Positions 38,473 to 51,200 of a stretch of DNA of 64,000 bases are shown here, piece by piece. Source of the stretch: Bacillota bacterium (lineage in GTDB: Bacteria; Bacillota; Clostridia; Oscillospirales; Ruminococcaceae). The notes beneath the pieces were generated by a model. It was not told where the DNA came from. It did not search any database and saw only the letters and a list, made by a program, of their open reading frames with translations. The translations under genes and the position numbers were made by a program. Location: the NCBI GenBank assembly GCA_023395435.1, contig JAEWZG010000061.1:14296-78295 (forward strand), read 5' to 3'. Every line of letters begins with the position of its first letter. Position 1 is the stretch's first letter.

Positions 38473-38559
38473 GCCGCTGTGGTGGAATAGGCAGACACAA
38501 GGGACTTAAAATCCCTCGGTAGTAATATCGTACCGGTTCAAGTCCGGTCAGCGGCACCA
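38473..38559 (+). tRNA. tRNA-Leu (anticodon UAA), class II with long variable arm, CCA encoded
   Basis: Acceptor GCCGCTG/CAGCGGC. Anticodon arm AGGGA-CTTAAAA-TCCCT. Variable arm CGGTA-GTAA-TATCG. T-arm ACCGG-TTCAAGT-CCGGT. Terminator at 38577-38605. Confidence 0.92.
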
Positions 38560-38979
38560 TAATGTTATATTTAACCAAAGGGCTCATAGAAATATGAGCC
38601 TTTTTGCATAATATAACGACGATACAAGAGAGTGGTGCAACACCTATAATATCAGCTCTACCAAAAAATAATTATTTCTTTTTTCTTTTACACATAAAAA
38701 TAGCCTTCCAGATTTATCGCATGAAAATTTACATTATTTAACAAAACTGGAAGGCTCGAACGAAGCCTAATTATATTATTATTTGAGAATTTTCAACGTC
38801 TTATGAATTACTGCTCATGCACCTGAACTGCCTATGTTTTAGATACAAGCTTAACCTTTGTATATATTGTTGCAGTTATTATTCTATATTATTTGTTCTG
38901 AAGGATTTGGAAGCTGTTTATGTGATCAAAAATTAATACACTGCAAAGAATAACAGAATAGAACTTTCAAGAAACAAAT

Positions 38980-40377
38980 TTATGACTTTGGCAATGTTAC
39001 CATAAATACACTTCCCTCATTTAAAACGCTCTGAACATCAACAGTACCGCCATGAGCTGATATAATTGATTTTACAATAACCAGTCCTATTCCTGTCCCG
39101 CCAGACTTACGATTACGTGATTTATCTGCTCTGTAAAAGCGTTCAAAAATAAACGGTAAATCTTCTGATGAAATACCAATTCCGTTATCTTGAATGCTAA
39201 GCATTATAGACTTATCCGTCTCTGAAAGATTAATATTGATGTTTCCGCCCTGACTTGTGTATTTTATTGCATTGGATAACAAGTTTATCACTACTTGACT
39301 AATTCTGTCTTTATCAGCAAAAATATCTGCGCAAAAGCCATTAACTGAAACAGACATAGCTTTATTTTTAAGTTCAACTTCAAAATTAAATAGCACCTTT
39401 TTTACTACTTCTATAATATTAACTTGCGTTTTTTCAAGTTTTAAGTTGTTGCTGTCAACCCTTGCAAGGCTTTCCAAATCCTTCACAAGTTTTTCAAGAC
39501 GAACGGCTTCATCATAGCAGCTTTGAAGGCGCTGCGTCGTCGGTTGCCACACACCTTCAACCATAGCTTCAATATGTGTCTGTAAAGTGGTAAGTGGGGT
39601 TCTTAACTCATGGGCAACGTCAGCAGTAAGCTGTTTTCTCAAATTTTCCTGCTTGCCTAATGAATCAGCCAAATGGTTAATAGACCCAGTAAGTTCGTTT
39701 ACCTCTTTTGTGTTTGTAGTTTCTTCAATTCTAACATTGTATTCTCCATCTGAGATTTGTTTTGCTACTCCAGCAGTTATAAGTATTGGGTGACTTATCC
39801 GTTTTGCCATAAAGAATCCAACAAAGACAGAAAAGACAAGTGAAATAACACTTACTAAAATTAGAATTCTATTAAGCGAATTTAAAAATTCAAAATCATC
39901 TTTACTTAGGAAATAAGGACCAAAAAAACTAATATTAGCTTTTCCAATTTCTTTATTTACTAAATAAATTGGAAACTCTTTTGAAGTGAATTCCCCATTG
40001 ATTTGTGGATATTTAGTCATCATTCTATGTGAAATATCATCCATTATCCGTGTACAGCTATTCATGTCACAAACTTCAGCATCCCATATATTATTACTGT
40101 TCACATCATAAACTTTAACAATAAACCCATCATAAAGAGCATTCATACCTATGGTGTGTACAAAATTCATATCCCATTTACCTGTTGCATCGTCATATTG
40201 TTGGCTGATCGATGTTACAATTTCCTTTACTGATGCTTGCTGTTGTCTAGTTATGTATCCTTTAAACTGGTCTTGAATTAAAAAATTAGAGAATAGGCTG
40301 ATTATTGCAATTGATAGCAATGTTACGAATGCAATAGTAAGTGATAGTTTTGTTTTTAAAGTATGTTTCATCCGCAC
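38980..40377 (-). CDS. Sensor histidine kinase (two TM helices, HAMP, HisKA, HATPase)
   Basis: H-box ADVAHELRTPLT, N-box NLLSNAIKYT, G-boxes DNGIGI and GGTGIGL. Confidence 0.88.
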   Translation of the reverse strand: MRMKHTLKTKLSLTIAFVTLLSIAIISLFSNFLIQDQFKGYITRQQQASVKEIVTSISQQYDDATGKWDMNFVHTIGMNALYDGFIVKVYDVNSNNIWDAEVCDMNSCTRIMDDISHRMMTKYPQINGEFTSKEFPIYLVNKEIGKANISFFGPYFLSKDDFEFLNSLNRILILVSVISLVFSVFVGFFMAKRISHPILITAGVAKQISDGEYNVRIEETTNTKEVNELTGSINHLADSLGKQENLRKQLTADVAHELRTPLTTLQTHIEAMVEGVWQPTTQRLQSCYDEAVRLEKLVKDLESLARVDSNNLKLEKTQVNIIEVVKKVLFNFEVELKNKAMSVSVNGFCADIFADKDRISQVVINLLSNAIKYTSQGGNININLSETDKSIMLSIQDNGIGISSEDLPFIFERFYRADKSRNRKSGGTGIGLVIVKSIISAHGGTVDVQSVLNEGSVFMVTLPKS

Positions 40378-40490
40378 ACCTTCCTTTCTCTCAAATTACT
40401 TTAAGGTGACACTGCAAAACCTTTAAGCACAAATTTTCTAAAATATGAGCTATAAGATTATGCCGTGCTACCTTAAGTTTATTTATTAAT

Positions 40491-41189
40491 CTACTCCCCA
40501 CCAAATTTATAACCTGTACCATGGATTGTAAGAATATATGTTGGGTTTTTGGGGTCACTCTCAATTTTTTGCCGAAGATTCTTTATATGGCTATCGATTG
40601 CCCTATCATACCCATTAAACTCATCTCCAAAAGCTATTTGTATTAATTCTTCTCGAGTGAAAACTTTATTTGGATATTTTATCAAGGTTGAAAATATCTT
40701 AAATTCATTTGGTGTAAGATTTAATTCGCATTGATTCTTTTTAATTATGTGGCTTTCAAAATCAACGATTAAATCGTCATTCCCAAAAGTGCTTTTGTTA
40801 TATAGAGGCTGTAAATCGCTTTGTGACCTGCGCAGTACTGCATCAATCCTTGCATAGAGTTCTTTTAGACTGAACGGCTTTGTTATATAATCATCTGCAC
40901 CAATCTCTAAGCCTTTTAGCATATCAGATTCCTCTGCCTTGGCTGTAAGCATAATAATTGGTACACGGGACTTTTTACGAATTGTCATACAAATATCTTC
41001 ACCAGTCATATCTGGTAGCATGAGGTCTAATAATATTAGTGAGATATTTTTTCTTTCAAAAATACCAAGAGCATCATTCCCACTTTCAGCAGAAAACACA
41101 TTAAAATTTTTGCTTTCAAGAAATGACTTGACAACCTCTATTATTTTTTCTTCATCATCGACAATCAATATTGATTTTGCATTATCCAT
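40491..41189 (-). CDS. OmpR/PhoB-family response regulator
   Basis: Receiver domain (ILIVDDEE, DLMLPDMTG, LTAK) and winged helix (LTPNEFKIF..., GTGYKF). ATG 41189 after GAGAGGA. Confidence 0.9.
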   Translation of the reverse strand: MDNAKSILIVDDEEKIIEVVKSFLESKNFNVFSAESGNDALGIFERKNISLILLDLMLPDMTGEDICMTIRKKSRVPIIMLTAKAEESDMLKGLEIGADDYITKPFSLKELYARIDAVLRRSQSDLQPLYNKSTFGNDDLIVDFESHIIKKNQCELNLTPNEFKIFSTLIKYPNKVFTREELIQIAFGDEFNGYDRAIDSHIKNLRQKIESDPKNPTYILTIHGTGYKFGGE

Positions 41190-41250
41190 ATAATATCCTC
41201 TCAAAAACCATTCTCAAAGTCCCTTTAACAAAGGACTTTGAGAAATGCTA

Positions 41251-41457
41251 TTATACTATATCATAACCTTGATCTTCAATTGCAATCTTAATATCATCAA
41301 TTGATACTTTATCTGATTGGTACTCTATTGTAACAGTTTTTTGAGATAAATCAACTTCCACTGTTGCTACGCCATCAAGTGCACCAACAGATTTTTTTAT
41401 TACATTTTCGCAATGGGAACAGGACATCCCATCAACTATTAATATAATTTTTCCCAT
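41251..41457 (-). CDS. copZ: Copper chaperone CopZ (single HMA domain)
   Basis: 68 aa with GMSCSHC motif. ATG 41457 after GGAGGA. Confidence 0.85.
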   Translation of the reverse strand: MGKIILIVDGMSCSHCENVIKKSVGALDGVATVEVDLSQKTVTIEYQSDKVSIDDIKIAIEDQGYDIV

Positions 41458-41508
41458 TATAAGTTCCTCCAACAATATATTTTATTAATACTACTTTACG
41501 ACTTTTAT

Positions 41509-50126: not shown

Positions 50127-50132
50127 TTATTT

Positions 50133-50459
50133 TCACCTCAATAAATTTGTATTCAAACTATTAGGATTAAAATCGTCAGAACATTCTATATCGTGTAGGT
50201 ATCCATCTGTAAAACTAATTACTTTTCTTATTTCACCCGTCAATTCTGAAATTTCATTCCTTGTCGTTTTACTGAATTTATCGGCGAACAGCTTTAAATT
50301 ATCTGATGTGCATCCCTGAAAGTTATTTGAAGATGCTAACTTATTTATTTCGTCAAAGAAATCTTTGGAACACTTTTCTACTTTATTTGCAATTGCATCC
50401 ATTTTCCTAACCACTAGGGATATTTCTGACGTACTAATTATATAATGTGGACCAAACAT
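50133..50459 (-). CDS. Stand-alone LXG-like N-terminal domain protein
   Basis: 108 aa. IISTSEISLVVRKMDAI...NNFQGCTSDNLKLFADKF...ISFTDGYLHDIECSDDFNPNSL follows the LXG pattern (x-G, K.F/Y, Y..vD). RBS GGAGGGG. Confidence 0.4.
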   Translation of the reverse strand: MFGPHYIISTSEISLVVRKMDAIANKVEKCSKDFFDEINKLASSNNFQGCTSDNLKLFADKFSKTTRNEISELTGEIRKVISFTDGYLHDIECSDDFNPNSLNTNLLR

Positions 50460-50476
50460 TATTTCCCCTCCTAGTT

Positions 50477-50884
50477 CTATATTAACTGGCTTTTTAAGTA
50501 ATTAATTTCATTATTACACGCTTCAATTTGTTGATTATAATTTGCAATGCAACTAGTGACTTTACTCATTTCACCAGAGATATCATCCATTTTTTGTCTG
50601 ATTTGATTATTGCAATTAGCTATTTGACCTGAAAAAAAGATCTCACCAAAACATTCAGAAATTTTTTTAGCACTAACTAGTTCTAGGTTTCCAGCAGAAC
50701 ATAACATATTATATCTGTTGTTGTTATCAAAAAAAGATTCATGCAAATCAAGTAACGCCTTTAAGTTTTTATATTCCTCTTCTAGGAATACTTTTTTACT
50801 TTTACATTCAGATATATTTTCACATAAAACTGAAATAGTATTATTATTACTATTTATTTGATAAACAATATCACAATCATTCAT
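50477..50884 (-). CDS. Coiled-coil protein, YwqH/DUF5082-like accessory candidate
   Basis: 135 aa, heptad-rich, first gene of the operon. Confidence 0.35.
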   Translation of the reverse strand: MNDCDIVYQINSNNNTISVLCENISECKSKKVFLEEEYKNLKALLDLHESFFDNNNRYNMLCSAGNLELVSAKKISECFGEIFFSGQIANCNNQIRQKMDDISGEMSKVTSCIANYNQQIEACNNEINYLKSQLI

Positions 50885-50918
50885 AACAATCTCTCCGCTC
50901 AGTCATAGTTTATTAAAT

Positions 50919-50947
50919 ATTATAACATAATATATCAATGCTTTCAA
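50919..50947 (-). promoter_or_regulatory. Near-consensus sigma-A promoter of the toxin operon
   Basis: TTGAAA (50947-50942), 17-nt spacer, TATAAT (50924-50919) on the - strand. About 35 nt upstream of the first start codon. Confidence 0.65.
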
Positions 50948-51066
50948 GTGTAATCCACAAAATCTAATAATTATATAGATAGTAAAGTATGAAATTTAGA
51001 TGCCATTTTAACTATAACTTTGGTTTTAATCTTTGATAAACTTTCATCTTCATATACTTCTTAAGG

Positions 51067-51200
51067 TATACTCACTTAGATAACGAGAATTTGAAAATGG
51101 CTGCTAATAAATTTGATACTTATTTAATAGGAAAAATACAAGGGACTTAAAATCCCTCGGTAGTAATATCGTACTGGTTCAAGTCCGGTCAGCGGCACCA
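51067..51200 (+). repeat. att-like repeat C: 72-nt island arm plus 62-nt copy of the tRNA-Leu 3' part
   Basis: 51139-51200 differs from the tRNA at one position (ACTGG vs ACCGG in the T-stem). Followed by its own terminator at 51201-51234. Confidence 0.85.

Follow-up and report, generated by a model that had tools for sequence, protein, structure and literature searches.

Two tandem islands at the 3′ end of a tRNA-Leu(UAA) gene in uncultured Clostridia, probably decayed elements that kept their attachment sites and no integration genes

Introduction

How do two cargoes that share no sequence come to be stacked behind a single tRNA gene, each bounded by pieces of that gene, when neither is accompanied by a recombinase? 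The question is raised by a stretch of 64,000 nucleotides (nt) from a Bacillota bacterium of the Ruminococcaceae (assembly GCA_023395435.1, contig JAEWZG010000061.1, positions 14,296 to 78,295 of the forward strand), hereafter the window. Here, an intact tRNA-Leu(UAA) gene is followed by two further direct copies of its 3′ part, and the intervals between the copies hold a copper module (island 1) and a toxin-like operon (island 2). We conclude, with a probability of about three in four, that the 3′ end of this tRNA gene was an integration hotspot, and that both intervals are decayed tandem islands resembling cis-mobilizable elements (CIMEs), which kept their attachment (att) sites and no integration genes. 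A preliminary description, made from the letters of the window, had taken the copies for att scars of elements inserted into tRNA-Leu and stacked in tandem without an integrase. The repeats themselves, an unoccupied site in a related species and a reduced locus in a further lineage (L123) all support that interpretation.

Organization of the locus

The features on which the argument depends are listed below, with positions in the window.

38415–38443, plus strand: promoter of tRNA-Leu, TTGACT-17-TATAAT, 11 of 12 consensus matches; ancestral 5′ flank, kept in the related contigs L094 and L097
38473–38559, plus strand: intact tRNA-Leu(UAA) (ARAGORN, Rfam); its final 63 nt (38497–38559) are att core copy A (attL)
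38577–38606, plus strand: terminator hairpin 3′ of copy A, at the tRNA-proximal end of island 1 (−16.7 kcal/mol, z −4.1)
38560–47325, minus strand: cargo of island 1, copper module (Pfam)
47326–47396, plus strand: arm B, 71 nt, non-coding, distal end of island 1; also in L117, and its first ~38 nt in L123
47397–47459, plus strand: core copy B, boundary between islands 1 and 2 (repeat search, alignment)
47460–47499, plus strand: terminator hairpin 3′ of copy B, proximal end of island 2 (−18.2 kcal/mol, z −7.0)
47460–51066, minus strand: cargo of island 2, five-gene operon, probable polymorphic-toxin module (gene sizes, gene order, faint matches)
51067–51137, plus strand: arm C, 71 nt, distal end of island 2, 87% identical to arm B (repeat search, alignment)
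51138–51200, plus strand: core copy C (attR), the displaced tRNA 3′ part, running into the ancestral flank (repeat search, alignment)
51201–51272, plus strand: ancestral tRNA-Leu 3′ flank with two terminator hairpins (51201–51235 and 51245–51272), homologous in L094 and L097 and retained in L123
51285–52216, minus strand: pair of genes for proteins of 185 and 131 amino acids (aa), ancestral neighbour of tRNA-Leu and our anchor for finding empty or reduced sites

The repeat search recovers A, B and C as a three-member family of direct repeats. The preliminary description had placed them to within one base; the core starts one base earlier than it had given and is 63 rather than 62 nt long. Beginning 2–3 nt before the anticodon stem and extending to CCA, copies B and C are 94% and 98% identical to copy A (four positions differ between A and B, one between A and C). 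A 63-nt match at such identity cannot have arisen by chance. The tRNA-Leu(UAA) at 38473–38559 scores 57.7 bits against Rfam, and its cloverleaf fold has a z-score of −2.75. Folding also bears out the terminator that had been described behind each copy: every core is followed by a distinct strong hairpin and a U-run (free energies of −13.8 to −18.2 kcal/mol, z −4.1 to −7.0). A terminator of its own just after each tRNA copy fits an element attachment site (attP) that restores a complete tRNA transcription unit.

An identical layout is present in three independent assemblies (ERZ27269283, ERZ28596539 and GCA_023421665.1) at 99.6–100% identity, and the arrangement is therefore no assembly artefact. 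Two short-read contigs of a fourth sample (SRR13400996) end within the repeats, L003 in copy A and L006 in copy C, as expected for repeated sequence.

Copies B and C have more than the core in common. Their shared unit of 135 nt (47326–47460 and 51067–51201, 90% identity) is composed of the arm, the core and one extra base. Alignment confirms that the real tRNA has no such arm upstream, as had been described, and gives the length of the arm as 71 nt instead of 72. The two arms differ at 9 of 71 positions, all within the distal 42 nt, and the 29 core-adjacent arm nucleotides form with the first 21 nt of the core a block of 50 nt that is identical in B and C. This block may reflect either protein-binding constraint or gene conversion between direct repeats. 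One substitution lies within it in L117, a contig described below, which argues against strong constraint. The idea that the arm is a decayed 5′ half or leader of the tRNA was rejected: in local alignments to the tRNA upstream region of the window and of L094, shuffled arms score as well as the arm itself (p 0.2–0.5).

On the minus strand, at 47398–47418 and 51139–51159, the anticodon stem-loop of both B and C runs into a stretch of T residues that the arm contributes (GTATTTTTCC). The result is a terminator-like site that faces the cargo operons; copy A has no such site.

Copies B and C might alternatively be functional RNA genes, either tRNA-like or small RNAs derived from the 3′ half, each with its own promoter and terminator. 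Their anticodon, variable and T arms are intact with a terminator behind, a GCUGCU segment of the arm can pair with the acceptor 3′ strand in both units, and weak promoter-like sites occur in or before the arms. The fold energies are nevertheless no better than those of shuffled sequences (z −1.2 and −0.4), neither copy has an Rfam match or an ARAGORN call, and L123 has lost most of the unit. A role of B and C as structured RNAs is thus unsupported, and we regard this explanation as hardly credible.

The unoccupied site in a related species

Three contigs of a related species (L094, L095 and L097) show the site unoccupied. Homologues of the 185/131 pair (61–63% aa identity) are followed there by an intact tRNA-Leu(UAA), with 85 nt between it and the 185-aa gene; the corresponding distance for copy C in the window is 84 nt. 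When these loci are aligned with the window, the promoter and leader preceding copy A are homologous to those preceding the intact tRNA, and both terminators following copy C are homologous to those following it. No such homology is seen in what follows copies A and B; the terminator after copy A, in particular, is not homologous to the flank of the empty-site tRNA. Promoter homology at A combined with terminator homology at C therefore identifies an ancestral locus split by a 12.6-kb insertion. The ancestral order, as shown by this alignment, was promoter, tRNA-Leu, two terminators and the convergent 185/131-aa gene pair, and the empty site matches a precise chromosomal attachment site (attB).

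The gene pair has been kept next to tRNA-Leu in at least four lineages (61–69% aa identity, and ~90% nt identity in L123). The two genes overlap, and neither the Cys/Lys-rich 131-aa protein nor the Thr-rich 185-aa protein matches a family in Pfam, NCBIfam or PHROGs. On the other side, the gene upstream of the tRNA encodes a Bax1-I protein. Close homologues at 80–96% aa identity are directly followed by another gene, with no tRNA-Leu; a separate search of genome contigs with the Bax1-I protein gave, among the matches listed, relatives at no more than 45% identity. Synteny with relatives at 88% identity stops at 38195.

Four contigs (L087, L088, L091 and L090; ~88% nt identity) share with the window only a 6-kb block (32102–38195) containing iorAB, a ligase, ThiF and Bax1-I. 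After Bax1-I they continue with a gene for an FAD-dependent protein of 458 aa and have no tRNA-Leu.

Island 1 in two further lineages

Two further contigs, L117 and L123, were located through their CopA homologues. L117 (SRR30787006) holds a copy of island 1 with 96.4% nt identity and with the arm attached; the contig stops 5–6 nt into the core. Its arm differs from that of the window by changes of the ordinary neutral kind.

In L123 (SRR18214741), copA is 89.2% and the 185/131 flank 89.7% identical to the window. The tRNA-Leu 3′ end is followed by ~140 nt, a 20-codon stub of the gene for the 227-aa protein of island 1, copA with its upstream region, the first ~38 nt of the arm, a remnant of 16–17 nt from the core 3′ end, both ancestral terminators, and the 185-aa and 131-aa genes. 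Neither island 2 nor an integrase is present at the locus. L123 is a copA-only island 1 with a destroyed distal att site, in which an internal deletion of the island has occurred. As island 1 and the flank are equally diverged, the common ancestor already had island 1, and its inheritance since then has been vertical. The core stub of L123 had also been read as a "CTGG" variant of copy C; an ungapped MAFFT alignment is equally good, and the insertion order deduced from that reading was dropped.

The preliminary description had made its interpretation depend on presence/absence polymorphism at the site. Such polymorphism exists, as the empty site of L094, L095 and L097 and the locus of L123 without island 2.

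A foreign tRNA allele in copy B

Copy B differs from copy A solely in the variable arm, which reads CAATA-GCAA-TATTG in B and CGGTA-GTAA-TATCG in A and C; that of the empty-site relatives is CGGTA-GCAA-TACCG. The stem of copy B is kept through a compensatory double change, and this copy therefore derives from a different functional tRNA-Leu. Such an allele is what would be expected of an attP that had cycled through another host. It was not found in the other loci compared or in viral contigs.

Beyond arm and core, the bodies of the two islands share no sequence. A foreign origin is suggested for island 2 by its low GC content (28.1%, compared to 32.6% for the window), its absence in L123 and the allele of copy B. 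The GC content of island 1 (34.1%) differs only marginally from that of the window.

Search for a recombinase

That neither interval encodes a tyrosine or serine recombinase, as first described, is upheld by domain searches and tblastn. No recombinase domain (PF00589, PF00239 or PF07508) was detected in any open reading frame (ORF) of the islands or among the ORFs of the 34 kb covered by gene tables. The best tblastn match of a tyrosine integrase to the whole window has E = 0.34, and the six-frame pieces from the island intergenic stretches are short and of low complexity, with no recombinase remnant. Arm-specific patterns have no match in IMG/VR or the JGI metagenomes, and in BLAST searches of the arm-core units against phage and plasmid records the core alone matches. 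Additionally, neither remnants of conjugation or mobilization functions nor an intact parent element were found in the islands and in these same collections.

A 30-mer from the T-arm and acceptor stem has 13 matches in IMG/VR, mostly in tRNA arrays of jumbo phages, and one alone is informative. This contig, L104 (IMGVR_UViG_3300045988_136676), contains a fragment of tRNA-Leu(UAA) at 3219–3285 that extends from the anticodon stem to CCA and is not called as a tRNA. A divergent tyrosine integrase of 393 aa (3508–4689; PF00589, 1.5e-24) is located 220 nt from the fragment, with phage genes on both sides and flanking genes for a dUTPase and an NrdG-like protein. Fragment and integrase are the probable attP of a large phage contig. 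Since the arm of L104 has no similarity to arms B and C, this contig sets a mechanistic precedent and is not itself the cognate helper. Two JGI metagenome matches proved to be ordinary tRNA clusters. Four INPHARED "phage" records with the core at their ends were considered as att sites and rejected; they are bacterial contigs that terminate within or close to a complete tRNA-Leu and have no integrase in the vicinity.

Proposed mechanism

When tyrosine integrases that target tRNA genes exchange strands in the anticodon loop, with the halves of the anticodon stem as inverted core sites, the expected identity block has the extent seen here. Sublocation classes of tRNA-integrating elements were reportedly defined by Williams in 2002.

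For the locus in the window, we propose that each element had an attP with three parts: the 71-nt arm, a tRNA copy extending from anticodon stem to CCA, and a terminator belonging to the element. Recombination between this attP and the tRNA would have been the work of a tyrosine-type integrase; the crossover probably lay in the anticodon loop, where the stem provides the inverted core sites. The complete tRNA would then be rebuilt from the copy of the element, and the old 3′ part pushed to the distal end. One such event would have brought the copper module of island 1. A second, by an element with a related arm, would have brought the toxin-like operon of island 2 together with the foreign tRNA-Leu allele of copy B; this element may have entered the tRNA ahead of island 1 or, if it came later, the distal att copy. 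In the resulting arrangement, cores A and B flank island 1, cores B and C flank island 2, and arms are found at B and C. A helper integrase of matching specificity alone could still excise the islands, by recombination of A with B, B with C or A with C.

Successive insertion by two related elements, the history put forward in the preliminary description, is probable. The shared arm, the allele of copy B and the locus of L123 without island 2 agree with it; the insertions could have occurred in either order, and relatedness is read from the arm.

Several points weigh against our interpretation. The crossover point is deduced and not observed. The kinship of the two elements hangs on 71 nt alone, the tRNA-proximal ends of islands 1 and 2 share no homology, and no integrase accompanied by this arm was found in the collections searched. 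The empty-site relatives are distant (~73% nt identity), and the region 5′ of the tRNA has been rearranged from one species to another and is, as such, uninformative. Finally, L123 may have lost island 2 by deletion (window 47363 to ~51185), which leaves successive insertion unproven; a locus that never received island 2 and one that lost it require an equal number of events.

Could the repeats have formed with no site-specific recombination at all, through local duplication of a single att scar, or through homologous or illegitimate insertion of cargo between existing tRNA fragments? The missing integrase and the unrelated proximal ends of the islands would agree with such an origin, and L123 demonstrates that illegitimate deletions happen here. 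B and C are 10% different overall, and a local duplicate would lack the different, stem-preserving tRNA allele of B. Each copy has a distinct terminator, the start of the repeat coincides exactly with the anticodon stem, which is also true of the attP next to the L104 integrase, and the empty site matches a precise attB. We consider this origin very improbable.

Active or decayed islands

The preliminary description had left two fates for the islands, decay or mobilization in trans. In the latter case, they would be satellites that are still active, cassettes mobilizable in cis or in trans whose 135-nt units are recognized by an integrase elsewhere in the genome or by that of an incoming helper, with cargoes being exchanged between strains. 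Both att units are intact in the lineage of the window, the contrast between the 50-nt identity and the nine differences in the distal 42 nt of the arm may reflect binding of a protein, island 2 is missing from L123, and mobilization of CIMEs by accretion is documented (PMC5704250). However, the assemblies of the same species all share an identical layout, and island 1 is as diverged as its flank, which indicates vertical inheritance. The att unit has been deleted in L123 and shows ordinary neutral differences in the arm in L117. No helper and no second copy of the arm turned up in the viral, metagenome, phage and plasmid collections, and gene conversion between the direct repeats, which are separated by 3.7 kb, could account equally well for the 50-nt block. 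Active satellites are, on this evidence, rather unlikely.

A bolder version would make the 135-nt unit a portable recognition module of a trans-acting tRNA-Leu integrase, with cargo cassettes stacked, swapped and lost in the manner of integrons. If so, the 50-nt block would be the protein-binding part of the module and the absence of island 2 from L123 a trace of exchange; we rate this possibility as improbable.

The evidence favours decay: most probably, the islands are vertically fixed. Having no integrase, they would be unable to move alone, and they appear to be inherited vertically and to be eroding, an erosion that is shown for island 1 in L123.

Cargo of the islands

Pfam domains confirm the copper homeostasis cargo that had been described for island 1, the genes of which are listed here.

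38980–40377, minus strand: histidine kinase of an OmpR-type two-component pair (Pfam)
40491–41204, minus strand: response regulator of the same OmpR-type pair (Pfam)
41251–41475, minus strand: HMA chaperone (Pfam)
41509–42969, minus strand: HMA-DsbD_2-cupredoxin fusion (Pfam)
42996–43529, minus strand: FtrD-like protein (Pfam)
43789–44472, minus strand: 227-aa protein, unknown in the Pfam scan
44480–46945, minus strand: CopA-type P-type ATPase (Pfam)

The copper module is found as a unit in distant Clostridia, in Acetoanaerobium noterae (68% nt identity) and in contigs L118 (78%) and L119 (70%), where no pieces of tRNA flank it. Because it stands alone elsewhere, it is a functional module, turned into island cargo in the present lineage.

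Island 2 comprises five genes.

50477–50884, minus strand: 135-aa gene, YwqH-like match (E = 0.032)
50133–50459, minus strand: 108-aa gene
49842–50126, minus strand: 94-aa gene
48229–49863, minus strand: 531/544-aa gene (531-aa form 48229–49824)
47694–48224, minus strand: 176-aa gene, product with an N-terminal transmembrane segment

The preliminary description had called this a toxin operon. Gene sizes, gene order and faint matches make that plausible but unproven, and none of the proteins has a significant family match in Pfam, NCBIfam or PHROGs. A polymorphic-toxin module of the T7SSb LXG/Lap type would have genes for small helical partners ahead of the toxin gene, an immunity gene behind it, and a large protein with an N-terminal LXG domain and a variable C-terminus. 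In island 2, three helical ORFs (94–135 aa) precede the large gene, and the 176-aa transmembrane protein follows it. The 531/544-aa protein has no match in the three family databases at E ≤ 0.01, and an LXG domain was not found at its N-terminus; a distant homologue (P0255) matches LXG at E = 0.0045, below the cut-off. The family of the large protein is very rare: a search of 1.84 billion representative proteins gave 12 matches at E ≤ 1e-3. One relative (P0248) shares just the N-terminal 180 aa (70% identity), which would be consistent with the modular pattern of polymorphic toxins. A search of the Protein Data Bank with the sequence of the 531-aa protein returned nothing, and a single-sequence AlphaFold (AF2) model is unusable, with a predicted local distance difference test (pLDDT) score of 32. 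The DNA of island 2 has no match among plasmids.

Just within island 2, a near-consensus promoter-like site (TTGCAA-18-TATAAT, 47528–47557, plus strand) points towards the end of the toxin-like operon; downstream of this site there is no ORF.

Neighbouring att scars and cassettes

A second tRNA gene has left a comparable trace beyond the 185/131 pair. A tRNA-Thr(GGU) is encoded on the minus strand at 61414–61489, and a remnant of its 3′ part with three mismatches is located 9 kb away, at 52396–52437. In L094 (215–379), L095 and L097 (3874–3976), a 45-nt Thr fragment, identical to the 3′ part of the full tRNA, stands just upstream of the 131-aa gene, preceded by an arm ~73% identical to window 52511–52438; no full tRNA-Thr is nearby. 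The terminator after the fragment in these relatives is homologous to that after the full tRNA-Thr of the window (61413–61364), and not to that after the remnant in the window. Thus, in several species, the 131/185 segment lies between old att scars left by two convergent tRNAs.

Further along, a 193-nt repeat (86.5% identity; 56478–56667 and 58224–58415) lies within a region of Rhs-fragment and immunity cassettes. At ~59.4–61.1 kb (59400–61130), the window and GCA_023421665.1 (L005) share patches of 90–96% identity and carry different ORFs, a pattern that indicates turnover of orphan toxin/immunity cassettes at the level of strains.

Comparison with known systems

The locus reveals no new mechanism, and its differences from known systems are modest. 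It provides a natural example in three states (empty, reduced single island, double island) of a tRNA hotspot that accumulates and then fossilizes cargo, in poorly sampled uncultured Clostridia. This history accounts for the copper module and the probable inter-bacterial toxin operon being strain- or lineage-specific here, and the exact att boundaries can be used in seeking a helper integrase.

A three-step model has been described for tandem elements in Firmicutes, in which an element integrates, decays to a CIME with attL and attR retained, and is joined by another through accretion at attR (PMC5704250). The CIMEs and tandem accretion of the ICESt1/ICESt3-related elements of Streptococcus thermophilus, integrative and conjugative elements (ICEs), are a close reference (Pavlovic 2004, Bellanger 2011, reviewed in PMC5704250). 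Like those CIMEs, the islands of the window are flanked by attL and attR, carry no integration or transfer genes and are arranged in tandem at the 3′ end of the target gene. They differ in that both tandem members are without an integrase and no functional partner, either an ICE or an integrative and mobilizable element (IME), was seen; with no conjugation or mobilization remnants in the islands, descent from an ICE or IME is not evident from the genes. The target is also different, a tRNA-Leu in an uncultured spore-forming Clostridia lineage.

Tandem islands have also been described at ssrA in Dehalococcoides, and some of these, which have no integration module, have been proposed to be CIMEs or fixed (PMC3146451). 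There, as here, a single small-RNA gene is followed by several consecutive islands, with a direct repeat of the gene's 3′ end delimiting each of them, and a short conserved motif immediately upstream of each repeat, which does not align with the target gene, is analogous to the arm. The repeats of Dehalococcoides are 20 bp long, at the T-loop, and the integrase is the serine recombinase DsiB. In contrast, the 63-nt repeat from the anticodon stem is typical of tyrosine integrases, and no member of the array in the window keeps an integration module.

Apart from having no integrase in either island, the locus resembles the classical tRNA-integrating prophages and islands of tyrosine integrases, as exemplified by L104, with an identity block from the anticodon stem to CCA, a tRNA that would be regenerated on insertion, and a displaced 3′ part at the distal end.

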